Assembly: GCA_964636965.1 (NCBI GenBank)
Contig: CAZWST010000002.1
Span: 12,344 to 76,343, forward strand
Length of the DNA stretch: 64,000 bases
Source of the DNA: an uncultured Muribaculaceae bacterium
GTDB taxonomy: Bacteria; Bacillota_I; Bacilli_A; RF39; UBA660
Direction of reading: 5' to 3'
Positions 466 through 64,000 of this stretch are shown here, piece after piece; position 1 is the first letter of the stretch; each line of letters opens with the position of its first letter. Made by a program: the position numbers and the translations under genes. A model generated the notes under the pieces. The model was not told where the DNA came from, did not search any database, and saw only the letters and a program-made list of their open reading frames with translations.

Positions 466-948
466 TTAGTAAGCTATTTTTAATGTTTTTATTGAATGCC
501 AAGAATAATTATTTGCAATTAAAGAAATAATATTTCTTATATCATCTGATGAATATAAATCCTTTTTTTCTGAATCTATTAAGTATTTAGAAAATGGTTC
601 TAAATTCAAAACATGTTCATCTAATGATATATAGTTACCATCTACTTCATAAATAGTAGTAACCATTTCTTGATTCAAAACGTCTATTCCATCTTCAGTT
701 ACAACTCTCAATTCGCACTTCCCATCAGCCCCCTTAACTTCAACTAAAAACCAAGAGGATACAACACTATATTTAACATTACCCGTAACTAAACATTCAT
801 CATTAACGACTTCATAACTAAAACTTTTATTCTCATTAATTAAATCTATAAGTTCTGGAGTTTTTATTATTGCATTAGATATTGCATATGCAAGCAAAAC
901 TACACTAGCACTCGAAGCTGCGCCTGTTTTTTTATTCATCTCTATCAC
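466..948 (-). CDS. hypothetical protein (160 aa)
   Basis: Long ORF in the operon orientation. No motif recognised. Confidence 0.45.
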   Translation of the reverse strand: MIEMNKKTGAASSASVVLLAYAISNAIIKTPELIDLINENKSFSYEVVNDECLVTGNVKYSVVSSWFLVEVKGADGKCELRVVTEDGIDVLNQEMVTTIYEVDGNYISLDEHVLNLEPFSKYLIDSEKKDLYSSDDIRNIISLIANNYSWHSIKTLKIAY

Positions 949-1028
949 CTAAGTATAGTATAGCAGAAGAAAATAGCTTACAAATAATACCAAAACCTTA
1001 TATATCATATATCAAATTTGATATAACA

Positions 1029-1052
1029 TAAAAAAAGACACATAAGTGTCTT
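1029..1052 (-). terminator. intrinsic terminator after rpsR
   Basis: On the minus strand, AAGACAC-TTAT-GTGTCTT is followed by a T-run and overlaps the rpsR stop codon. Confidence 0.6.
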
Positions 1053-1266
1053 ATTTAACAAATGGTATTAAAGCCATAAATCTAGCTCTTTTAATTTGTT
1101 GAGCTATATGTCTTTGATGTTTAGCACATGCTCCAGTCATTCTTCTAGGCATTATTTTACCTTTTTCATTTATATATTTTGAAACAATAGCTACATCTTT
1201 ATAGTCTACGCTTTTACCAGCACACATTTGACAAATTTTCTTTTTCTTTCTGAAAAATTCAGCCAT
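1051..1266 (-). CDS. rpsR: 30S ribosomal protein S18
   Basis: 71 aa. Contains the motif ...[40 protein letters not shown]. Sits in the rpsF-ssb-rpsR synteny. Confidence 0.95.
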
Positions 1267-1281
1267 TAAACTTCTTCCTTT

Positions 1282-1737
1282 CTAAAATGGTAAATCATCA
1301 TCACTTAATACTACCTCAGAACCTAAATCCTTATAAGGATCTTCACTTAAGTCAGCACCATCTGATGGCATATCACCATTACTATAATCAGGCATGTTAT
1401 CAGCAAAATCCGAACCGCCACTATTTTTACTACTTAAAAATCTAACATTGTCAGCAACAACATCAGTAGTATATCTAGTAGTTCCATCTTGTGCTTGATA
1501 ACTACCAGTTTGGATTCTTCCAGTTATTCCAACTAATGAACCTTTCTTACAGTATTTAGAAACATTTTCAGCTTGATTTCTCCAAACTACAATATTGATA
1601 AAATCAGTATGTGGTTCCCCATTTGCACCAGGGCGACCATCAACTGCGATACTAAATCTGCAATTAGAAAGTCCACTAGAAGTTGTTCTTAATTCTGGAT
1701 CTCTTGTTAATCTTCCTACTAAACAAACATTATTCAT
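1282..1737 (-). CDS. ssb: single-stranded DNA-binding protein
   Basis: The OB-fold N-terminus reads MNNVCLVGRLTRDPELR...FINIVVWRNQAENV. The tail is acidic and ends in DDDLPF. Confidence 0.92.
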   Translation of the reverse strand: MNNVCLVGRLTRDPELRTTSSGLSNCRFSIAVDGRPGANGEPHTDFINIVVWRNQAENVSKYCKKGSLVGITGRIQTGSYQAQDGTTRYTTDVVADNVRFLSSKNSGGSDFADNMPDYSNGDMPSDGADLSEDPYKDLGSEVVLSDDDLPF

Positions 1738-1741
1738 AGGT

Positions 1742-2032
1742 TTACTCCTCGTCTAAACTAATTATCATATGTCTTATGATATTTTCATCGATTCTTGCTT
1801 TACGATCTAATTCATTAACAACATCATTAGTACCGTTAAAGTTAATTACATAATAAAAACCTGTAACTTCTTTGTTAATTGCATAAGCTAACTTTTTTTG
1901 TCCCATATCTTTTTCATCAGTAATTTCACCCTTCATAGAAGTAATTACAGACTTTAAGTTTTCAATAGAACTCTTAACAGTTGCCTCATCAATTGTAGTC
2001 TTTACTATGAACATCATTTCATACTTGTTCAT
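1742..2032 (-). CDS. rpsF: 30S ribosomal protein S6
   Basis: 96 aa starting MNKYEMMFIV..., with LAYAINK. It is the first gene of the rpsF-ssb-rpsR operon. Confidence 0.95.
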   Translation of the reverse strand: MNKYEMMFIVKTTIDEATVKSSIENLKSVITSMKGEITDEKDMGQKKLAYAINKEVTGFYYVINFNGTNDVVNELDRKARIDENIIRHMIISLDEE

Positions 2033-2099
2033 ACAACACCTCCTTATGGTCTATTCGGCTTTAGTTCATTCTAAAGCAAGGAGCTCTTCGCTCGAAAGT
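2033..2099 (-). promoter_or_regulatory. candidate structured rpsF 5' leader (S6:S18 autoregulatory type)
   Basis: In the transcript, CTCCTT (2078-2083) can pair with the SD AAGGAG (2040-2045). This pairing encloses the hairpin CTTTAG-AATGAA-CTAAAG. Confidence 0.35.
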
Positions 2100-2128
2100 A
2101 TTATAGCAAATAACAACCTTTATGTAAA
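2100..2128 (-). promoter_or_regulatory. sigma-A type promoter of the rpsF operon
   Basis: On the minus strand: -35 TTTACA (2123-2128), a 17-nt spacer, and -10 TATAAT (2100-2105). Confidence 0.5.
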
Positions 2129-2291
2129 TAATTAATTTAAAATTAGACTTTTTGGTTTAGTAAAATACTGTTCATTGAAGTTTTTACCTCTATATCATAT
2201 CCACTAAAATCATATGCATCAAGATTAATTTGAAAACTAGCATTTTTAAATGTTACAAAAAAATTTTAGACATTATAATTTTTTATAATAA

Positions 2292-2318
2292 CAAAAAATA
2301 GACTTTTTTTAGTCTATT
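2292..2318 (-). terminator. intrinsic terminator after ORF 2317..3030
   Basis: AATAGACT-AAAAAA-AGTCTATT is followed by a T-run on the minus strand. Confidence 0.55.
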
Positions 2319-3030
2319 AATCATCTTTATAAGGATATCTATAATAATAAGATTGATTCTTATCTTCCCTATGACTTTTTTTATCTTCGGGAAATGCCGG
2401 GATCTCTTCTACTTCTGGTACATCTTCTAAAAAGATTTTATATAAATCATCTAAACTATATTTAGATGTATCAAGAAGCAAAAATCGTATTGCTTCTGGA
2501 AATCTTTTCATACTTGAAAGTTTATGATAAACATACGAATAATCTGAAGTTTTAATAGCATCAATTTCAATTCTTTCTGCTACATATCTTAATGGACCAT
2601 CAAAAAAACTATCATAAATAATACTATCAGAACGCGTTTTATCACACTTATAAAATGCATCTAAACTTCCTTTAGTCATATTTGCAAGAACAATAGATTC
2701 AAGTGGATAAGATTTGTCATTATAAATTATATTGGTAAATAAAGCCTGCTTAGGTTCTCCATTTTTTATTATATATACCCCATTACCAGTTAGTTCCATA
2801 TCAATTGGCATAATGCCATTTTCTTTTAAATACTTATTTGATATCTTTGCTAGAATTTCATCTTTTATCGAAGCAAATAGTTGAAATTTATCCAAAAACT
2901 TTAATGTAAATGAATCAATCTCTGATAACGTACCAGTCTTTAATTCATGTAGATAAGGTTCATCACACCAGGGATATACATTTAAGCTCAACATTAATGA
3001 ACATTTCTCTTTCATTTTTAAAACCCCCAA
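2317..3030 (-). CDS. hypothetical protein (237 aa)
   Basis: Long ORF between ychF and rpsF. No motif recognised. Confidence 0.45.
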   Translation of the reverse strand: MGVLKMKEKCSLMLSLNVYPWCDEPYLHELKTGTLSEIDSFTLKFLDKFQLFASIKDEILAKISNKYLKENGIMPIDMELTGNGVYIIKNGEPKQALFTNIIYNDKSYPLESIVLANMTKGSLDAFYKCDKTRSDSIIYDSFFDGPLRYVAERIEIDAIKTSDYSYVYHKLSSMKRFPEAIRFLLLDTSKYSLDDLYKIFLEDVPEVEEIPAFPEDKKSHREDKNQSYYYRYPYKDD

Positions 3031-3034
3031 ATAT

Positions 3035-4141
3035 CTATTTAGTTACATTAAATCTAAAATAAACAATATCTCCATCTTGCATTAAATATTCTTTTCCTTC
3101 AAGGCGAACACGACCAGCTTCTTTAACTTTAAGTTCAGATCCATATGTCTTTAAATCATCAAAGCTCATTACTTCTGCTTTGATAAATCCTTTTTCAAAG
3201 TCTGTATGAATAATACCAGCACATTCAGGTGCTTTCATTCCTTTTCTGAATGTCCAAGCACGACATTCATCTGACCCACTTGTAAAAAATGTTTCAAGGC
3301 CAAGTAAATCGTATGTTGCAAATATCAATTTATCAAGACCTGAATTTGTTATACCCAAGTCTTCCATAAATGCTTTTCTTTCATCATCTTCAAGTGGTGC
3401 AAGTTCTGCTTCAATCTTAGCGGACATAACAATTACTCCAGCACCTTCCTTAGAAGCATACTCCATTACTTTATCAGTATATTCATTATGACCAACTGAT
3501 GCATTTTCTTCAGATACATTCGCAGCATAAATCATTGGTTTTAAAGTAATAAAAGAAAAATTCTTAAGAACTGCTAGTTCGGCATCATCAAATTCAACTC
3601 TTCTTAAAGGAATATTAGCTTCTAAAGCCTCAATACATTTTTTTAATGTATTAATCTCAAGTAACTCTTGTTTATCTTTTGTCATTGTAGCTTTCTTACC
3701 AATTTTATTTAAACGATTATTAATTATTTCCAAATCGGAAAATATTAGCTCAACATTAATAATCTCAATATCTCTAATTGGATCTACTCCACCTTCAACA
3801 TGTGTAATATCTTTATCATCAAAACATCTAACAACTTCTACAATTGCATCTACTTCTCTTACATGACTTAAGAATTTATTACCTAGGCCTTCGCCTTGGC
3901 TAGCACCTTTAACTAAACCAGCTATATCAATAAACTCATAAGCAGTAGGAACAATACTTTTTGGATTATACATTGATACTAAATAATCAAGTCTTGTATC
4001 TGGAACAGTTACTACTCCAACATTTGGATCAATTGTTGCAAATGGATAGTTAGCTGCTAAAATATTCTTTTTTGTAATCGCGTTAAATAAAGTGGATTTA
4101 CCAACATTAGGTAATCCAACAATACCAGCTTTTAATGCCAT
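3035..4141 (-). CDS. ychF: ribosome-binding ATPase YchF
   Basis: Starts MALKAGIVGLPNVGKSTLFNA (P-loop). The TGS-like C-terminus ends ...DGDIVYFRFNV. I moved the start to the ATG at 4141, which follows the RBS GGAAGAGGGA. Confidence 0.95.
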   Translation of the reverse strand: MALKAGIVGLPNVGKSTLFNAITKKNILAANYPFATIDPNVGVVTVPDTRLDYLVSMYNPKSIVPTAYEFIDIAGLVKGASQGEGLGNKFLSHVREVDAIVEVVRCFDDKDITHVEGGVDPIRDIEIINVELIFSDLEIINNRLNKIGKKATMTKDKQELLEINTLKKCIEALEANIPLRRVEFDDAELAVLKNFSFITLKPMIYAANVSEENASVGHNEYTDKVMEYASKEGAGVIVMSAKIEAELAPLEDDERKAFMEDLGITNSGLDKLIFATYDLLGLETFFTSGSDECRAWTFRKGMKAPECAGIIHTDFEKGFIKAEVMSFDDLKTYGSELKVKEAGRVRLEGKEYLMQDGDIVYFRFNVTK

Positions 4142-54610: not shown

Positions 54611-54968
54611 TGGTGGAGACGAGCGGAGTCGAACCGCTGTCCAAGTTACTCTTCTAAATAGCGTCTACAAGTTTAGTTAGAAATTAATTGTTCATAAATG
54701 ATATAAGCTTCTAACAAACAAATCATTTACTATCTTATTAGTATTCATCTACATCATATAAGAACTAATATAGATATATTCCATATATATGAACCGAATA
54801 TTTTAACTATGGAAGAATTAAAACATCAGCTCTCCTTGCTAATTATTAAGCAAATACTGGAGAAAAATTAAATTTATTGTCAGTTAATTTTAAATTTTTG
54901 CTACTTAGGGTTTGCTACCACTTGCAACTAAGTCAAGACTATAACCTGTCGAAACCAATTACGTCCCC
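54611..54968 (-). ncRNA. ssrA: tmRNA (SsrA), 358 nt
   Basis: The 5' end is GGGGACGTAATTGGTTTCGACAGG and the 3' end is GGTTCGACTCCGCTCGTCTCCACCA. The candidate tag reading frame at 54846-54881 encodes DNKFNFSPVFA followed by a stop. Confidence 0.9.
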
Positions 54969-56304: not shown

Positions 56305-56838
56305 TTATCTAGGATAACCTACATACATCATCCCAGTTCCTAAAATGCCTCCTATTCCACTTTTTCCATATTTTGTTTTTGAAAGTAGTTCTTTTATGTC
56401 TATTTTTTTATCCCTTTCAGTTAAAGAAATATTAACAGCAATAACTGCGGGATCTAACGCATGTATATTAACTCTTTTTGGACTTGAAGCAAAATTTGCA
56501 CCACTCCTGATTAAATCTTCATAATCACTTTGACATGCTCCAGCAATAATTACTAATTTTTCATGGGATTTTTCATATTCACGAGCTTTTAAAATTGTAT
56601 CTCTAAAGTATTTAGAATTCTTATAATTATTGATATTGGTTTCATCACCGTTTTTTGAATCATATGCATCATGACCTGTAATAACCAAAATATCTGGTCT
56701 TGTTTCATTAAGAAGATCTTTAATTTTATCAGGCATTAAAGATTCTGGTAATTGTTTCCCTATTGCTAAGCAGTCACATTCTTTATAAAAATCTAAAGAT
56801 TTATTTAAATAATCAACATCACCATCTGCTGTCTTTTT
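56305..56838 (-). pseudogene. yabG: 3' segment of sporulation-specific protease gene yabG (peptidase U57), lacking its 5' third and any start codon
   Basis: RPDILVITGHDAY, IIAGACQS, ANFASSPKRVNIHALDP. The frame stays open and YabG-like (ADGDVDYLNKSLDFYK...) for 34 codons upstream of the track's ATG. It then hits a stop at 56839-56841 with no ATG, GTG or TTG in between. Confidence 0.75.
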
Positions 56839-56855
56839 TTATGTAACAAAAAAAG
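56833..56855. other. A/T palindrome at the yabG breakpoint; candidate serine-recombinase att junction
   Basis: CTTTTTTT-ATGTAAC-AAAAAAAG lies exactly where the YabG homology ends. Confidence 0.35.
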
Positions 56856-56914
56856 AAAAAATATAAAGATTTATTTTAACTTATATGCTATAATAAATAA
56901 AAGAAGGTGTTAGT

Positions 56915-57976
56915 GTGAAGAATTTAAAGGAGTTAATCGACGATAATAAGCCTGTAGCAATACTATCAATACTAACAATTATTGCAATTATTATCGGATT
57001 AGTATGTTTTGGAACTAAAACTATTGAAAAAACAACTGAAAAGAAAGTTTTAATGGATCAATCATACACAATGTATTTTAAGGAAAGTGCTGTAGTAAAA
57101 TTAACAATAAGGGAAAGTTACTATAAGTGTGGTAAAAATGTCTGCAGTGATTATGAAGATACAATATCTAGTTTTGATTTCATTAATGACGAAGCTAAAA
57201 ACATCTACGCAAACATTAATATTAAAAATAAAGATTTAGATGAAGCAATAAGCCTATTACTAAATGAAGCTAAAACTAAAAATCATAATATAGAGTCTTT
57301 AAGACTAATAAGTAACTGGAAAACAAGATATAGTGAAGAAGAGTTTAAAAAACTATTAAATAAATACCTAGGTGAAACACCTGCATTCCCAATCGTATTC
57401 GAATATCAAGAAAAAGTTGATGATCAAAGTGTTTTACAAGCAAATCCAGTTAAAACATATACTATAACTTTTGACAGTAATTTAGGAACTGCTGTTGATA
57501 CTCAAATAGTTAATGAAAATGAACTTGCAGTTGAACCAAACATTCCAACTAGAGAAGGTTACGACTTTGTAAGATGGCAATATAATGGTAGACCATTTAG
57601 TTTTGATACACCGATCACTAAAGACTATACATTAAGAGCCTCATGGAAGAAAAAACCTACTGTTTCAACAAAAACATCTACAACATCTACAACAAAAAAA
57701 CCTAATCAAAATAACAATAATAACGGAAATAATAACAACAACAATAATAATAACAATAACAACAATAATAACAATGGCAATGACAATAATGGTAATAACG
57801 GCGGAAGTGGTTCATCTGAACCTGAAAAACCTAGTGAGCCTGAAAAGCCAACTGAGCCTGCAAAACCAGCCGAACCTGAAAAACCTACAAAACCAGTAGA
57901 TAATGATAATAATGATGATAATGATGATAATCCAACTCCAGAAGATAGTGGAAATGATCAAAATGAAGCAAACTAA
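56915..57976 (+). CDS. membrane-anchored exported protein with a Listeria-Bacteroides (Flg_new) repeat domain, a poly-Asn tract and (EPEKP)n repeats
   Basis: GTG start after the RBS AAGGTG. TM segment near the N-terminus. YTITFDSNLGTAVDTQIV...EGYDFVRWQYNGRPF...TKDYTLRASW. Confidence 0.6.
   Translation: MKNLKELIDDNKPVAILSILTIIAIIIGLVCFGTKTIEKTTEKKVLMDQSYTMYFKESAVVKLTIRESYYKCGKNVCSDYEDTISSFDFINDEAKNIYANINIKNKDLDEAISLLLNEAKTKNHNIESLRLISNWKTRYSEEEFKKLLNKYLGETPAFPIVFEYQEKVDDQSVLQANPVKTYTITFDSNLGTAVDTQIVNENELAVEPNIPTREGYDFVRWQYNGRPFSFDTPITKDYTLRASWKKKPTVSTKTSTTSTTKKPNQNNNNNGNNNNNNNNNNNNNNNNGNDNNGNNGGSGSSEPEKPSEPEKPTEPAKPAEPEKPTKPVDNDNNDDNDDNPTPEDSGNDQNEAN
57704..57800 (+). repeat. AAY trinucleotide-rich tract encoding poly-Asn
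   Basis: Encodes NQNNNNNGNNNNNNNNNNNNNNNGNDNNGNN. Confidence 0.8.
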
Positions 57977-58000
57977 AAAGGCTATTTAAAAGCCTTTTTT
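57975..58000. terminator. bidirectional hairpin between the convergent gene 56915..57976 and the recombinase gene
   Basis: AAAGGCT-ATTTAAA-AGCCTTT is flanked by A and T runs. Confidence 0.5.
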
Positions 58001-59361
58001 ATATTATAATAAATTTTAATCGAATCAAATATTTCTACTCTCTTAATACAATTAATCTCAAAAATATTGAAAGAATAACTACTAATTGCAGTTCTAACAT
58101 CAAAAGAGTTTAAATATTTAATCACACTATCATTTATATTATATGTACGATTTAATTTATCAAGATTCTTATAGAATAATTCTAAAGAAATAGCATAAGA
58201 ACATTTTTTCTTATATAGTTCTTTATATTTTAATATATAATTATTTTTACTCTCTATAAATAATTTTAATTTATCATTTATATACTCAATTAATCTAGTT
58301 TCAGTATTTTCTTTAATCATATTAATTTTTTCTTCATTTAATATTAAATAAAAATTATAACTAATTAAATTTTTTAATTTAGAAAAAGTAATTGTCTTAT
58401 TACAATTAATACATTTATAATAAAACTGACATTTATTATTCTTGAATCGCTTATAAAATTTCATTTCTAATTTACATTTACTACAACAAACAGGAAACGT
58501 TAATTTTTTTTCACACTTTATTAAGTCATGTTCTTGATAACTTTTTAACATAGAATTAGCGATTAAAAAATCATCTTCGCTTATTATTGCAGGAAAGACA
58601 TTATTAATATATTCGTAATTTCTCTCTCTTATATATTTACGCGATTTATCTTTATAACTATTCTTTATTGACTTTCTAACTATTAAATCACCTTTATATA
58701 GAGCATTTTTAAGCGTTTTACGAACCTTTTTATAATTCCATAATGAAATATGCGGATTATTTAAATAATCTTCTATTTCATTTAAATGATTAACAATTGA
58801 AGTAATAGAATTACCACTAATAAATTTCTTAAATATTAATCTTATTATCGAGGCTTCTTTTTCATTAATTATTAAAGTTCTTATGGAATCAATATATACA
58901 ATATTATAACCAAAAGGCGCTTTTGGACCAATATATTCGTGATTAACAGTCTTTAAATAGGAAATATTCTTTCTCTTAATAGATGCATCTTTTACATACA
59001 ATTCATTAATTAATGTTTTAATATGCATAATAGATTCACTATAATTATCTTCAATCGAGATTAGTTTTATATTATATTTACTAAATAACTCCTCAATATA
59101 ATAACATGTTTCAAAAAAAGATCTTCCCAAACGAGAAATATCTTTAACAATTATTATTCTAACCATTTTATTAAGTATATATTCTTTTAATTCGTTAAAT
59201 GCTTTTCTATTATAAGTAATACCACTTACTCCATCATCAATAAATATACGGTCTAACTTATAATTATTATTAATACAATAGCTTTTTATTAAATTTATTT
59301 GATTTATAATACTTAAACTTTTATTTTCTTTAACGCTTATTCTTACATATCCAACTATCAT
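57982..59361 (-). CDS. large serine recombinase (459 aa)
   Basis: Resolvase catalytic domain GYVRISV...IINQ...DDGVSG...VKDISRLGRSF. Cys-rich zinc-ribbon region CCSKCK...CINCNK. Confidence 0.9.
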   Translation of the reverse strand: MIVGYVRISVKENKSLSIINQINLIKSYCINNNYKLDRIFIDDGVSGITYNRKAFNELKEYILNKMVRIIIVKDISRLGRSFFETCYYIEELFSKYNIKLISIEDNYSESIMHIKTLINELYVKDASIKRKNISYLKTVNHEYIGPKAPFGYNIVYIDSIRTLIINEKEASIIRLIFKKFISGNSITSIVNHLNEIEDYLNNPHISLWNYKKVRKTLKNALYKGDLIVRKSIKNSYKDKSRKYIRERNYEYINNVFPAIISEDDFLIANSMLKSYQEHDLIKCEKKLTFPVCCSKCKLEMKFYKRFKNNKCQFYYKCINCNKTITFSKLKNLISYNFYLILNEEKINMIKENTETRLIEYINDKLKLFIESKNNYILKYKELYKKKCSYAISLELFYKNLDKLNRTYNINDSVIKYLNSFDVRTAISSYSFNIFEINCIKRVEIFDSIKIYYNIKKAFK

Positions 59362-60827
59362 TGAAAATAAAACCTATAATAAATATATACATTTTTATGT
59401 TTATCAATGGATATCTTATTAATAAGTGAAGAGTATATATATTTATCATCCAAATTCATAAATTTATTATAAATAAAATCCATTTTATTTATTAATGAAT
59501 CTTTCACTTTTTTCATTTTATTTAATTTATACTTCTTTTCTTTTATTTCTTCTTCAATACTACTTCTTAATAAGAGATAATCATTATCAGTTATAATCCC
59601 ATTTATTTTATCTTTATATAATGAAACTAACAATTCTTTTTCATCTTCTAACAAAGAGTTAGACTTAAAAACATCTTCACTCATTAACTTTTCTTCTATA
59701 ATTTTATTAAGAATCTTAAAGAATGTAGTTTTATTTAAAAAACTTGATAAGGATGTTTTTATCAATTCATTAAGTTTATCTTCTCTAAAATAATGCATTG
59801 AACATTTTTTACCATTATTCTTAGCATAAGTACTACAACAATATATAACTCCTGATTTAGTTTTCCTTACAAACATATTTTTATTACAATCTCTACATTT
59901 TACTAATCCTTTCAAAAGATAATCATATTTCTTATGTCTTATAATTTCATTTTTTTTATTAACACTTTTAAAGAGATCCTCATCAATAATAGCTGGATGA
60001 TTATCTGATATCTGTATCCATTCTTTTTCATCTAAAAGTTTTCTTTTAATAGACTTCAAGCTTACTCTTTCATATCTTCTTTGACGCATTAGACCAACGT
60101 ATACAGGATTTCTTAAAATATAATTTATAGATGAAGATGTCCAAGAAGATTTATTTATTTTTCCTCTATTATTATAAATATTGGGAGGTGCTATTTTTCT
60201 TTTAGTTAAAGCTCTCGCAATTAAAGATGCATTCATTCCACTATTGGACATCCTAAATATATCTTTCACTACAAAAGAAGCATTATTATCTATTTCTAAT
60301 ACTCTCGAATCTTTTAAACTTCTTTTATACCCATATGGTACAGTACTCCCCATAAAATACCCTTTTCGCATTAGCTCATGCCTAGATGATTTAATTTTTG
60401 TAGAAATATCTTTTAAGTACATATCATTTAAAACTGTTTTAAAAGGTATTATATCGTCACTTATCGATGGTATATATGAATCATACTGATCAAGTATAGC
60501 GATATATCTTACGTTATTTTCAGGAAACACTTTATATATATAATTGCTTGTACCAAGAAAGTCTCTACCTAGTCTTGATATATCTTTTGTAATAACTAAA
60601 TTAATAATATGTGCATCAATATCAGCAAGCATTCTTTTAAAAGCCGGACGATTAAAATTACCACCTGAATAACCATCATCCACATAATACTTAACTATTT
60701 CAATATTATTCTTTATACAATAATCATTTATTACATTCTTTTGATTTATAATACTTGTGCTATCTTCATTGCTCTTACTTTCAGAAACAGAAATACGTGC
60801 ATATACACCAGCCTTAAATATTTCCAT
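59358..60827 (-). CDS. large serine recombinase (489 aa)
   Basis: VYARISV...IINQ...DDGYSGGNFNRPAF...TKDISRLGRDF. Zinc ribbon CRDCNK...CCS...C. The stop overlaps the next recombinase start (ATGA). Confidence 0.9.
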   Translation of the reverse strand: MEIFKAGVYARISVSESKSNEDSTSIINQKNVINDYCIKNNIEIVKYYVDDGYSGGNFNRPAFKRMLADIDAHIINLVITKDISRLGRDFLGTSNYIYKVFPENNVRYIAILDQYDSYIPSISDDIIPFKTVLNDMYLKDISTKIKSSRHELMRKGYFMGSTVPYGYKRSLKDSRVLEIDNNASFVVKDIFRMSNSGMNASLIARALTKRKIAPPNIYNNRGKINKSSWTSSSINYILRNPVYVGLMRQRRYERVSLKSIKRKLLDEKEWIQISDNHPAIIDEDLFKSVNKKNEIIRHKKYDYLLKGLVKCRDCNKNMFVRKTKSGVIYCCSTYAKNNGKKCSMHYFREDKLNELIKTSLSSFLNKTTFFKILNKIIEEKLMSEDVFKSNSLLEDEKELLVSLYKDKINGIITDNDYLLLRSSIEEEIKEKKYKLNKMKKVKDSLINKMDFIYNKFMNLDDKYIYSSLINKISIDKHKNVYIYYRFYFQ

Positions 60828-60936
60828 TATCTATTTTTTCCCTTATATAATTATAAAGTATCTCTTCAATCAATTCCTCAAGGCTTTTTCCATCTTCATT
60901 AAATATATTTATAACTTCTGACTTTTTATTTTTCAT
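60814..60936 (-). CDS. 40-codon ORF overlapping the recombinase start (possible accessory or directionality factor)
   Basis: My own translation is MKNKKSEVINIFNEDGKSLEELIEEILYNYIREKIDNGNI. RBS GAGGA. Its stop overlaps the ATG of the 489-aa recombinase. Confidence 0.4.
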   Translation of the reverse strand: MKNKKSEVINIFNEDGKSLEELIEEILYNYIREKIDNGNI

Positions 60937-60981
60937 AAATATCCTCACAAATATATATGAATTAACGAACAATTTAAGAAT

Positions 60982-61010
60982 AAAAAAACTAGTTAGAATA
61001 ATCTAACTAG
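60982..61010 (-). terminator. intrinsic terminator after the repeat surface-protein gene
   Basis: CTAGTTAG-ATTATT-CTAACTAG is followed by TTTTTTT on the minus strand. Confidence 0.6.
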
Positions 61011-61016
61011 CTTCTT

Positions 61017-64000
61017 TTATTTTCTAACATACAATTTAACTAAAACTGCTACGAAGAATAAGAATACTACTAGACATCCAAGAATAATCTTATAATTAAT
61101 TCCTGCACTTGTCTTTTCTTCCTTTTCTTCATCTTCTGGAACTTTTATTTCTTCCATTTGTTTAGTTGTTGTAGTTGTTGTATCATCCTCAACTTTACTT
61201 GTAGTTGTAGTAGTATTTTCAGTAGTATGTGAAGGAGTAGTACTTGTATTTCCCGAAGTAATACCAGTATTATTTCCAACACTTGTACTTCCACCACCGT
61301 TATTTGGTTTAGTAGGTTTTGGATTTACAGGTTTGGAAGGCTCTGTAGGTTTTGTTTCATCTGGTTTTACTGGATCCTTTGGCTCTTCTGGATTAGAAGG
61401 CTTAGGATCTTCTGGTTTTGGATCTATAGGTTTAGGATCATCAGGTTCTGTTGGCTCTTCGGTTATCCAACTCACAATTGCTTCTGCAGTTCCTTTATTT
61501 CCTGCCTTATCTACAAATTCAAACACAAAGCGTCCATTCTTAGTAAATACGTAAGTACTCTTACCATTGTTATTTGTTATAGTAACGTCTTCATTTGTTC
61601 TTAATGTAACTATTACACTTTCAAAAGTAGGTTCAGTAATAGAATATACTATTCTACCAACTGGAGCTTCTTTATCAATCCAATTAACAATTGCTACTGC
61701 ACTTCCTTTATTTCCTAATTCATCGATAAACTCAAATACGAAACTTCCGTTTTCTGTAAATACATAAGTATTCTTGCCACCATTATTTGTGATTGTTACT
61801 CCTGCATCAACACTTAATGTTGCTGTTACATCTTTGTTTGTTAAATCCTTAACATTATATGTTACTTGTCCTTGTGGAGCAGTTTTATCAATCCAATCTA
61901 CTTTGGCTTCTACAGTTCCTTTGTTTCCTGCTTTATCAACGAACTCAAATACAAAGCTTCCATTTTCTGTAAATACATAAGTAGAAGAACCATTATTATT
62001 TAGTATTGTTACTTCTTCATTAGTTTCTAATGTTGCAATAACTTCACCTGATGTAACAGTAGTTAAACTATAATTAATACTTCCAATAGGTGATTCTTTA
62101 TCAATCCAATCTACTTTAGCATGTACTTTTTTAGTATTGCCATAAGCATCTCCGATTATAAAATCAAATTCTCCATTGTTAGTAAATGTATAAGTGTTAT
62201 TACCACCATTATTAATAATTCTAATACCTTCATTTACCTCTAATGTTACTATTACATCTTTGTTTGTAGCAGAGGATTCACTATAAACTAATTTACCAAA
62301 CAGATTTGGGTTGACGATCCAATCTACTTTAGCTTTAATGCTTCCTTTATTTCCTGCTTTGTCAACAAACTCAAATGTAAATTCTCCATTATGAGTAAAT
62401 GTATATTTATTAGAGCCACCATTGTTAGTTATTGTAACCTCTTCATCAAATCCTAATGTTGCAGTTACACTATCTTCGGTTTCCTCACTTATGTCATATG
62501 TTATTTTGCCTTTTGGAGCAACCTTATCTATCCAGTTAACAGTTGCTGTAGCACTACCTTTATTTCCTGCCATATCTTCAAATTCAAATGTAAATGAGCC
62601 ATTCTTATCAAATGTATAGATTTTAGAACCATTGTTATTTGTAACAATTATTCCATCTTCCACATTTAATGTAGCTGTTACATTCTTATTTGTTAAGCAT
62701 GGTATATCATAAGTTATTGTGCCTTCTGGCGCATTCTTATTTATCCAATCTACTTTAGCCGTTGCAGTCCCTTTATTTCCTGCCATATCCACAAATTCAA
62801 AAGTAAACTCTCCATTTTTTGTGAATGTGTATGTTGTTGAACCATTATTATTTGTTACTCTTACTCCATCAGCAAGTTTTAATGTAGCTATTACATCTTT
62901 GTTTGTTATAGAAGTAATATCATAACTTATTGTTCCAATTGGAGCATTCTTATTTATCCAATCTACTTTAGCTTTAACACTACCCGTATTTCCAGCCTCA
63001 TCTACAAATTCAAAAATGAACTCTCCATTTTCTGTAAATGTATATTTAGTAGAACCACCATTGTTTGTTATAGTAACTGGCTCACTAGTTATAAGAGTTG
63101 CTATAACTTCTTTATTTGTGATGTCTCTTATTGAATAATTAACTTCACCTGTTGGAGCAATTTTATCAATCCAATCAACCGTTGCTGTTGCACTACCTTT
63201 ATTTCCGGCTTCATCAACAAATTCAAATGTGAATGATCCATTCTTATCAAATACGTATGTTTTTGATGCACCATTATTAGTTACTTTGATTCCATCTCTA
63301 ACCTCTAATGTTGCTGTTACATTCTGATTAGTCTTTGTTGTTCTATCAAAACTTATTGTTCCAATTGGAGCATTTTTATTTATCCAATCAACTTTAGCTG
63401 TTATACTTCCAGTATTTCCAGCAATATCTCTAAATTCAAATGTAAACTCTCCATTTTCTGTAAACGTATAAGTTTTGCTTCCATTATTATTTATAACTGT
63501 AGTTATTTTATCAGTAATTAATGAAACAACTACATTTTTATTTGTTATATCTTTTGTACTATAAGCAAGTGCTCCTTTAGGTGCTACTCTATCAATCCAA
63601 TTAACCTTAGCTGTTGCAGTACCTCTGTTTCCAGCTTGATCAACAAATTCAAATGTAAATTCGCCATTATCTTTAAATGTATATTTATTAGAGCCACCAT
63701 TATTTGTAATTGTTACTCCGTTTGCTACAGATAAAGTTGCAACAACATTATTATTTGTCAATTTAGTTGTATCATATTTAATAGTTCCTGATGGAGCCTT
63801 TTTATTAATCCAAGTTATTTCTGCAGTTGCAGTTCCTTTATTTCCGGCTGCATCTACAAATTCAAATGTAAATTCTCCATTCTCTGTAAATGTATATGTA
63901 GGAGAACCATTATTATTTGTTATTGTTACTTCTTCACTTGGAACTAAAGTAACATCAACATCTTGATTAGTAACGTCTCTTGTTTCATATTCAATAGTAC
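61017..64000 (-). CDS. very large surface protein of tandem 71-aa Ig-like repeats, with a Pro/Thr-rich stalk and a C-terminal TM anchor (5' end outside the window)
   Basis: The frame stays open upstream of the track's TTG at 63761 (...TFEFVDAAGNKGTATAEITWINKKAPSGTIKYDTTKL...). At least 12 repeats follow the pattern TNK.V.ATL.....V.ITNNGGS..YTF..NGEFTFEFVD.AGN.G...A.VDWIDK.AP.G. Confidence 0.8.
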   Translation of the reverse strand, partial: TIEYETRDVTNQDVDVTLVPSEEVTITNNNGSPTYTFTENGEFTFEFVDAAGNKGTATAEITWINKKAPSGTIKYDTTKLTNNNVVATLSVANGVTITNNGGSNKYTFKDNGEFTFEFVDQAGNRGTATAKVNWIDRVAPKGALAYSTKDITNKNVVVSLITDKITTVINNNGSKTYTFTENGEFTFEFRDIAGNTGSITAKVDWINKNAPIGTISFDRTTKTNQNVTATLEVRDGIKVTNNGASKTYVFDKNGSFTFEFVDEAGNKGSATATVDWIDKIAPTGEVNYSIRDITNKEVIATLITSEPVTITNNGGSTKYTFTENGEFIFEFVDEAGNTGSVKAKVDWINKNAPIGTISYDITSITNKDVIATLKLADGVRVTNNNGSTTYTFTKNGEFTFEFVDMAGNKGTATAKVDWINKNAPEGTITYDIPCLTNKNVTATLNVEDGIIVTNNNGSKIYTFDKNGSFTFEFEDMAGNKGSATATVNWIDKVAPKGKITYDISEETEDSVTATLGFDEEVTITNNGGSNKYTFTHNGEFTFEFVDKAGNKGSIKAKVDWIVNPNLFGKLVYSESSATNKDVIVTLEVNEGIRIINNGGNNTYTFTNNGEFDFIIGDAYGNTKKVHAKVDWIDKESPIGSINYSLTTVTSGEVIATLETNEEVTILNNNGSSTYVFTENGSFVFEFVDKAGNKGTVEAKVDWIDKTAPQGQVTYNVKDLTNKDVTATLSVDAGVTITNNGGKNTYVFTENGSFVFEFIDELGNKGSAVAIVNWIDKEAPVGRIVYSITEPTFESVIVTLRTNEDVTITNNNGKSTYVFTKNGRFVFEFVDKAGNKGTAEAIVSWITEEPTEPDDPKPIDPKPEDPKPSNPEEPKDPVKPDETKPTEPSKPVNPKPTKPNNGGGSTSVGNNTGITSGNTSTTPSHTTENTTTTTSKVEDDTTTTTTKQMEEIKVPEDEEKEEKTSAGINYKIILGCLVVFLFFVAVLVKLYVRK
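61420..64000 (-). repeat. about 213-nt (71-codon) tandem coding repeats, diverged copies
   Basis: The WID/WIN motif recurs every 71 aa: 11 times in 61420..63761 and at least once more before the window end. Confidence 0.8.

Follow-up and report, generated by a model that had tools for sequence, protein, structure and literature searches.

Why does the 64,000-nt stretch of uncultured bacterial DNA analysed here (64 kb, hereafter the window; coordinates without a locus label are window positions) carry the sporulation protease gene yabG only as a 3′ part lacking a start codon, beside two genes for large serine recombinases? Programmed excision of DNA from sporulation genes is a classic yet sparsely sampled phenomenon, and the sporulation genes known to be interrupted by excisable elements are sigK, spsM, spoVFB, gerE and, since 2023, yabG in one C. 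botulinum strain. Our answer, to which we assign a probability of roughly 0.7, is that the window holds the right-hand (attR) end of a compact, non-phage intervening element in yabG that is excised in sporulation. An initial annotation, made from the letters of the window, had already proposed an intervening element that must be excised to reconstitute yabG. From the sequences compared, it is well supported that the element is bounded by serine-recombinase attachment (att) sites and that excision is needed to rebuild yabG: both yabG halves in relatives, the att sites, in silico joins, selection and an empty site bear on this part of the proposal. We infer the remainder, namely excision during sporulation with its timing and cell type, the sigma factor, a heteromeric recombinase pair and the role of a small open reading frame (ORF) as recombination directionality factor (RDF). 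The features at the breakpoint are as follows.

56305..56826, minus strand: yabG 3′ segment, codons D80 to R252 plus stop (ORF, profile match and tblastn)
56800..56850, minus strand: attR, with arm GTTACATAA (56847-56839), a 7-nt spacer, CAGCA (56831-56827) and the central GA (56826-56825)
56827..64000, no strand: in-window portion of the intervening element, continuing beyond 64000 (gene content and relatives)

A 143-amino-acid (aa) ORF at 56305-56736 (minus strand) carries RPDILVITGHDAY, AGACQS and FASSPKRVNIHALDP. The catalytic His (TGHDAY) and Cys (AGACQS) motifs are invariant in the YabG alignment and both are present in the window segment. The same frame stays open for 34 more codons upstream (56737-56838) until a TAA stop at 56841-56839. 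None of these 34 codons is ATG, GTG or TTG, the first in-frame start being the Met at 56736 (M35 of the 177-aa translation), and no ribosome-binding site is visible ahead of M35 in the fragment. The 177-aa translation matches Pfam Peptidase_U57 (PF05582, MEROPS U57) with 222 bits against a cutoff of 25, covering profile positions 109-280 of 280, in agreement with the initial annotation, which had taken the ORF for the catalytic C-terminal part of YabG and named this profile as a check. It had also read all 34 upstream codons as YabG-like. The open frame, the lack of start codons and the stop are as it described, but the first four codons (K K T A) belong to the element, as part of attR, and not to yabG. 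The nearest intact YabG homologues, one of them labelled Erysipelotrichales, are 252 aa long and 87% identical; they read ...EYFYLPGKILH-IDGDIDYLNKSL... where the window reads KKTA-DGDVDYLNKSL. By tblastn, homology begins at D80 of these 252-aa proteins (window 56826), meaning that about 79 N-terminal codons are missing and not the 110-130 first supposed; YabG in this lineage is 252-257 aa long. When the N-terminal part of close intact homologues was used as the tblastn query, no match to the yabG 5′ part was found in the 64-kb window. Downstream of the fragment follow spoVG, yabP, yabQ, divIC and the transfer-messenger RNA (tmRNA) gene.

What, then, does the complete arrangement look like in relatives? 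A scan with one of the recombinases, Rec1, covered a genome collection with one genome per species and returned 23 loci, mostly labelled 'uncultured Bacilli', with a best match of 64% identity among the species-representative genomes. A look-up of the exact Rec1 sequence of the window returned no record. At 19 of the 23 loci (19 species-representative genomes) Rec1 and the second recombinase, Rec2, lie directly upstream of the yabG 3′ part, which is followed by spoVG. The common layout is rsmA, yabG 5′ half, attL, variable cargo, a small ORF of about 40 aa, Rec1, Rec2, optional cargo, attR, yabG 3′ half and spoVG; the three-gene module of small ORF, Rec1 and Rec2 points the same way as yabG and adjoins attR. 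Among the loci found, 21 have both recombinases together with the yabG 3′ part. The three clusters most similar to the window C-terminal part (89-94% identity) are all split (170, 181 and 143-148 aa), and their contigs show the window gene order and break inside a repetitive giant gene; only split forms were found for window-like species. Conversely, a profile of the N-terminal 82 residues recovered many YabG fragments of 84-143 aa. Locus L010 runs rsmA, yabG 5′ half, the gene for a giant 2225-aa protein, Rec1 and Rec2, its contig ending just past Rec2, and locus L037 has rsmA, yabG 5′ half, a giant surface-protein gene, Rec1, Rec2, a Flg_new gene, yabG 3′ half and spoVG. Since L037 shares the cargo order of the window, we expect a length of about 11.5-12 kb for the complete element of the window.

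Both yabG halves occur on one locus in L037, L019 and L020, and here attL and attR could be joined in silico at the central GA. The products are a 254-aa YabG with removal of 11,715 bp (L037), a 257-aa YabG with removal of 11,326 bp (L019) and a 257-aa YabG with removal of 5,402 bp (L020), and all three restored ORFs contain GKILHIDGD. The join across a shared core that the initial annotation had envisaged is therefore obtained in relatives, but at 254-257 aa and not at the roughly 290 aa it expected. It had also pointed to insertion-free relatives as a comparison, and an empty site of this kind is found in the Erysipelotrichales metagenome-assembled genome L040, where an intact yabG (252 aa) lies between rsmA and spoVG, followed by yabP and divIC. 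The split state is thus polymorphic across species, since close relatives with intact yabG exist too. At the 213-bp repeats of the giant gene (L001-L008) all short-read assemblies of relatives stop, each at the same point, so that the yabG halves are rarely on one contig; this is probably the reason that the split went unnoticed.

The insertion point in yabG lies between codons H78-I79 and D80-G81-D82. The attR consensus is GTTAC(A/T)TAA-N7-8-CAGCA-GA-TGGTGAT, with an element-side arm that is the same in 20 loci and a yabG-side arm that also begins TGGTGAT in the window. For attL the consensus is CAT-AT(T/A)-GA-TGCTG(A/T)C-N-TTA(A/T)GTAA. In L037, L019 and L020 the element-side arms of attL and attR are mutually reverse-complementary around GA, forming an imperfect palindrome, and palindromic arms around a central GA are the layout expected of a large-serine-recombinase attP. 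Moreover, the arms change in pairs between lineages: GTTACATAA/TTATGTA is exchanged for GTTACTTAA/TTAAGTAA, and AGACAGCA/TGCTGTCT for GTCAGCA/TGCTGA. The window and L037 have ACATAA/TTATGT together with AGACAGCA/TGCTGTCT, and L019 and L020 have ACTTAA/TTAAGT together with GTCAGCA/TGCTGA. A short core shared by attL and attR and restoration of the ORF are hence seen in silico in these three loci, and the attR of the window agrees with theirs in arm and core. Of the best 120 clusters of N-terminal YabG fragments, 74 have an attL-type tail immediately behind GKILHID, typical tails being AVYDLCSKFIN, ADNLLSNNL and TDIYLSNNLL, in which the L-S/C-N residues are the translated TTA(A/T)GTAA arm; cluster P0134, whose tail is of the L037 type, is recorded on at least 1000 contigs. 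The 5′ fragments P0150, P0176, P0184, P0186 and P0233 run ...HID-GD-N(L/R)LSN... and not ...HID-A(D/V)..., so that elements of the P0150 type have either a longer identical attP/attB core (GATGGTGAT) or a crossover a few bases more 3′.

Has yabG simply been inactivated by the insertion, leaving the 3′ fragment as a pseudogene remnant? The 5′ fragment is not in the window, the 3′ fragment has no start codon, and yabG is reported missing from some spore-forming Erysipelotrichaceae (Galperin et al.), all of which would suit such decay. The substitution pattern argues the other way. Against split relatives, the ratio of nonsynonymous to synonymous substitution rates (dN/dS) of the yabG 3′ half is 0.02-0.05 at a dS of about 1, and the 33 start-less yabG codons have a dN of 0.012-0.013 at a dS of 0.65-2.5. 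The 5′ halves of split carriers are constrained as well (dN 0.095, dS 2.45), the 3′ reading frame is intact in 21/21 carriers compared, the 5′ fragments are conserved at their native rsmA-proximal position, and the att arms are conserved and covary. The low dN/dS of the halves, start-less codons included, therefore excludes decay in its simple form, and we consider this reading very improbable. Strong purifying selection on both halves moreover implies that yabG needs regular, reliable reconstitution.

Selection could in principle also act on a permanently split gene, whose N-terminal 79-aa and catalytic C-terminal pieces would be translated separately and work as two subunits with no DNA rearrangement. 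Gene callers do list the 5′ ORFs (89-113 aa) and the 3′ ORFs (143-181 aa) as genes of their own, and in some relatives (P0001) a GTG occupies the V/M position close to the junction. However, neither a start codon nor a visible ribosome-binding site precedes M35, and yet the 33 codons upstream of it are under purifying selection; translation of the 3′ piece from M35 is therefore disfavoured. Two subunits would also leave the conserved palindromic att arms and two intact recombinases unexplained, and of all the readings we find this one the hardest to credit.

A further view of att-site recombination comes from a set of relic loci. In L054, L055, L057 and L058 the order is rsmA, yabG 5′ half with attL tail, cargo, small ORF, a Rec1 remnant (aa 1-159), part of rsmA, an intact 253-aa yabG, veg and spoVG. 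The two copies of a 1068-bp duplicate in L057 (3341-4408 and 10687-11754; part of rsmA plus the yabG 5′ half) are 99.7% identical, with three mismatches, and the duplicate stops exactly at the att core CATATTGAT. From there the left copy continues into the attL arm and the right copy into GGTGA..., i.e. a restored attB. The simplest reading would be unequal exchange between element-integrated and element-excised chromosomes, which would mean that precise attL x attR recombination has occurred in nature; an alternative is an earlier tandem duplication followed by deletion. The relic arrangement is common: 43-50 blocks of the collection index its small ORF, and one of its contigs is 1.68 Mb long.

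Which genes would carry out the excision that we favour for the window? The recombinase end of the element comprises the following features.

57975..57999, no strand: bidirectional terminator-like hairpin between Rec2 and the Flg_new gene (sequence)
57982..59361, minus strand: Rec2, a 459-aa large serine recombinase; domains Resolvase and Recombinase (Pfam and motifs)
59358..60827, minus strand: Rec1, a 489-aa large serine recombinase; domains Resolvase, Recombinase and Zn_ribbon_recom (Pfam and motifs)
60814..60936, minus strand: conserved 40-aa small ORF, MKNKKSEVINIFNEDGKSLEELIEEILYNYIREKIDNGNI, which overlaps the start of Rec1 (conservation in relatives)
60952..60980, minus strand: promoter-like region of the small-ORF/Rec1/Rec2 operon, TTCTTAAAT (60980-60972), spacer and CATATATA (60959-60952), resembling a CATA-type sigma-E/sigma-K -10
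60982..61010, minus strand: terminator-like hairpin and T-run after the giant gene (sequence; equivalent hairpins in relatives)

The stop of Rec1 and the start of Rec2 overlap by 4 nt. The hallmarks of large serine recombinases are present, i.e. an N-terminal resolvase domain with the catalytic Ser, a recombinase domain and a zinc ribbon, which in Rec2 is seen as CxxC...CxxC motifs in the sequence without a Pfam match. The YxRxS, SIxNQ, DDGxSG and SRLGR motifs are kept in every Rec1 and Rec2 copy, and dN/dS is 0.16-0.30 for Rec1 and 0.29-0.56 for Rec2, which is purifying though relaxed. The pairwise distance matrices of Rec1 and Rec2 are almost perfectly correlated (r = 0.99) and the pair therefore evolves as a unit. 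With an interrupted mother-cell sporulation gene and a large serine recombinase of its own, the locus has two of the marks of the sporulation gene-intervening class. The closest characterised relatives of the recombinases are TnpX and TndX (about 33% identity). A phage or plasmid origin was rejected for them, the best matches being about 33-34% identical and the best named one TndX of Tn5397. Membership of the CcrB, CcrC and XisF families was likewise rejected: against NCBIfam CcrB (cutoff 900) the scores are 96 bits for Rec1 and 52 bits for Rec2, the target being yabG and not rlmH, against CcrC (cutoff 900) Rec1 scores 91 bits, and scores against XisF are far below cutoff. On these scores Rec1 and Rec2 are neither Ccr nor XisF proteins.

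Of 26 loci examined, 24 have the small ORF ahead of Rec1; its consensus is M..KELVICVYDDNAPSI.EKILEAFE.YLKSTL and its dN/dS is 0.07-0.18. Its family counts at least 160 protein clusters, none of them annotated, and searches of profile libraries found no similarity to annotated families. The structure model has an extended N-terminal part and one helix (residues 19-36) at a pLDDT of 84, and is uninformative on function. By position and size the small ORF is the obvious candidate for the RDF. A 47-aa homologue is encoded at 1057-1200 of L056, a contig of 51 kb; the 10 kb of it that were examined hold neither a recombinase nor a yabG homologue, and the family may therefore not be confined to this element. 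At L025 the small ORF, Rec1 and Rec2 are present (854-4034), and no yabG 3′ part or attR-like site occurs within 8 kb downstream, where exported-protein, signal-peptidase-like and other genes are found instead; this locus has either extra cargo between Rec2 and attR or a different target.

Upstream of the small ORF, behind the terminator hairpin, most loci have TTCATTAAA-N13-14-(T)CATAnnnT. CATAnnnT stands 23-27 nt before the small-ORF ATG in 21 of 24 loci, as against 1 on average and never more than 6 in shuffles, although the loci are related and the count is not one of independent cases. In B. subtilis the sigma-E consensus is ATA...CATACA-T and that of sigma-K AC...CATA---TA. By this yardstick the promoter of the small ORF and recombinases looks like a mother-cell type, nearer to sigma-E, and the hairpin at 60982..61010 would shield the recombinase operon from cargo transcription. 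In relatives, where the rsmA-yabG spacer is only about 40 nt, yabG has CATAnnnTA some 12-20 nt upstream of its ribosome-binding site (L040 5960-6000; L010, L015, L037). This motif resembles a sigma-K -10 and fits the sigma-K dependence of yabG in B. subtilis (literature cited in PMC10747680).

We therefore propose, conditionally on these assignments, the following course of events. In the sporulating mother cell the recombinase operon would be switched on, probably by sigma-E, and Rec1 and Rec2 would act together, probably as a heteromeric complex, with the small protein serving as RDF. Recombination of attL with attR at the central GA dinucleotide would release the element as a circle and leave a 252-257-aa yabG intact again, which would then be expressed from its own sigma-K-like promoter. 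The forespore chromosome would keep the element, which would therefore be inherited. An order of recombinase operon first and yabG later would parallel skin in C. difficile, where the directionality factor, CD1234, depends on sigma-E (PMC5025042).

Is the excision developmental, or could it happen in any cell? Several observations weigh against the proposal. The 5′ half and attL of the window genome lie past coordinate 64000, and both are seen in relatives only. A search for the junction of the excised circle with the pattern GTTACNTAR-N7-8-CNGCAGATRCTG in IMG/VR and JGI metagenome contigs gave 13 matches, all due to chance, none having a recombinase, a right-hand arm or a fitting GC content. 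The -10 element of the window, CATATATA, is one base off CATAnnnT, and the mother-cell assignment of the promoter depends on its likeness to the B. subtilis consensus sequences. Rec2 evolves fast (dN/dS up to 0.56), and the distances of yabG and Rec1 are only moderately correlated (r = 0.50, p = 2e-4), so that some horizontal exchange is likely, as in an ordinary mobile element; the recombinase pair appears to be partly co-inherited with the host gene and partly exchanged. Lastly, the prophage yin in yabG of Clostridium botulinum V73, for which excision, the circle and restoration of yabG have been shown (Douillard et al. 2023; PMC10747680), is found in both integrated and excised forms at all growth phases and time points (PMC10747680). 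Excision from yabG therefore need not be strictly developmental.

The last two points would also suit an ordinary site-specific integrative element, or a cassette on one, that uses yabG as its attB and is excised sporadically in any cell type; yabG would then be restored in the excised subpopulation only, with no developmental programme. Beyond the behaviour of yin and the moderate yabG/Rec1 congruence, such an element would account for the accessory and changing cargo (adhesin-like surface proteins, a cluster with TelA and VWA genes, AAA ATPases), for intact yabG in closely related species and for the low GC content of the recombinase genes, which is 19.8% (window 58000-60000) and so much below that of the surroundings (neighbouring host genes 26-29%, giant cargo gene 30-33%). 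Set against this, the elements are without transfer, replication or phage genes, window-like species are seen only in the split state (the three most similar clusters, 89-94% identity), the conserved promoter behind the terminator is of the CATA type and not TATAAT, and both yabG halves are under strong purifying selection. On balance we judge sporadic excision unlikely, though the likeliest of the rivals, and retain programmed excision in sporulation as our reading of the locus. A bolder form of that reading, which we put forward only tentatively and regard as rather doubtful, is a domesticated 'yabG switch', inherited largely vertically and widespread in uncultured gut Bacilli, in which the two co-evolving recombinases form an obligate heteromeric excisionase guided by an RDF of about 40 aa under sigma-E control. 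If true, the 'yabG switch' would be the first case of a developmentally programmed DNA rearrangement driven by paired recombinases, and a tractable natural model for CcrAB-type pairs sharing att half-sites.

How does this element compare with known systems? The initial annotation had taken yabG for an uncharacterised target, which the publication of yin overturns (PMC10747680). The authors of that study found no other yabG insertion in public genomes (PMC10747680). Yin and the present family are alike in the interrupted gene and in the use of a large serine recombinase. However, yin is prophage-like (Caudoviricetes), has one recombinase, located beside the yabG 5′ half, and a 72-aa candidate directionality factor, and is known from a single strain. 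The present family lacks phage genes, has two tandem recombinases and an ORF of about 40 aa beside the yabG 3′ half, spans 5.4-11.7 kb and occurs in uncultured low-GC Bacilli/Erysipelotrichales, in at least 19 species-representative genomes. A yin-type element was accordingly rejected for the window on the grounds of no phage genes, two recombinases and location by the 3′ half.

The arrangement of two recombinases had been called unusual for such elements, and here the initial annotation is only partly borne out. Precedents exist, the nearest being the gin element in gerE of Bacillus cereus ATCC 10987, which has three serine recombinases (girAB and girC) and needs only GirC and the 42-aa GirX (Abe et al. 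2017; PMC5595907). Gin is also a non-phage element in a mother-cell sporulation gene, with several serine recombinase genes including a two-gene operon (girAB) and a tiny directionality factor (GirX, 42 aa) without recognisable motif. Unlike the present pair, girAB is dispensable and not expressed, and the target gene is gerE. In the present family, set beside gin by description, the tandem pair is the sole recombinase content, universally conserved and co-evolving (r = 0.99), and in this respect it does remain unusual.

Paired or tripled recombinases are known outside sporulation too: elements of the staphylococcal cassette chromosome (SCC) use a ccrAB recombinase operon. Triplets of serine integrases occur in streptococcal integrative and conjugative elements (ICEs; PMC4701971). 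Both these systems resemble the present one in having full-length large serine recombinases side by side at one element end, in the same orientation relative to the target gene, and in phylogenetic clustering by position; they differ in their targets (rlmH, mutT, hsdM or traG) and have no sporulation link. The best-known sporulation systems are skin in sigK with SpoIVCA, the C. difficile skin with CD1231 and CD1234, and SPbeta in spsM with SprA and SprB. As proposed here for yabG, these use programmed mother-cell excision by a large serine recombinase to rebuild a late sporulation gene, with timing set by a sporulation-controlled factor (recombinase or directionality factor), but they have a single recombinase, a prophage-derived backbone and other target genes.

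Our literature search found no paper on this element family. What is new here is a non-phage, two-recombinase family of yabG elements that is larger than and different from yin; the target gene and the principle have already been published. If the proposal is true, yabG is a recurrent target of developmental DNA rearrangement, the family offers a compact natural set of covarying att sites, with their recombinase pairs, in which the joint action of serine recombinases and their RDFs can be studied, and truncated or missing yabG in the automatic annotation of these gut spore-formers is explained.

The rest of the element in the window is cargo.

56915..57976, plus strand: exported protein; transmembrane segment at the N-terminus, Listeria-Bacteroides (Flg_new) repeat (PF09479, 46 bits) and a tail rich in Asn and Pro
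61017..64000, minus strand: 3′ part of the gene for the giant repeat surface protein, its ORF still open where the window ends (ORF and domains)

Together with the recombinases these are the genes that had been described past the breakpoint, namely an exported repeat protein, two tandem large serine recombinases and a giant repeat protein running to the window end, and that description holds. The Flg_new cargo is confined to the window lineage of elements, with homologues in L001-L008, L017 and L037 only. The giant gene contains 213-bp tandem repeats (71 aa) and Big_3_2-like units and encodes a C-terminal membrane anchor; its full-length homologues in L010 and L037 are 2225-2460 aa long and have NPCBM, F5/8-type-C (discoidin) and Big_3_2 domains. 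Cargo varies among the elements, comprising the giant surface protein (NPCBM, discoidin, Big_3), a TelA/XpaC-like/VWA/AAA gene cluster, an AAA_14/DUF4143 ATPase and a DUF975 protein. No phage, transfer (conjugation) or replication genes were found among the genes of the elements examined.

Two minor observations concern the flanking region. An IS605-family OrfB/TnpB gene (OrfB_IS605, Cas12f1-like_TNB) at 9579-10733 of L001 lies between the divIC-side genes and a NUDIX gene, and is absent at the same spot in L002 and the window. The tmRNA (ssrA) gene lies at 54611-54968 on the minus strand (Rfam RF00023, 123 bits), and it is because of this gene that a 392-nt block is 94% identical to relatives where the flanking genes reach only 74-84%.

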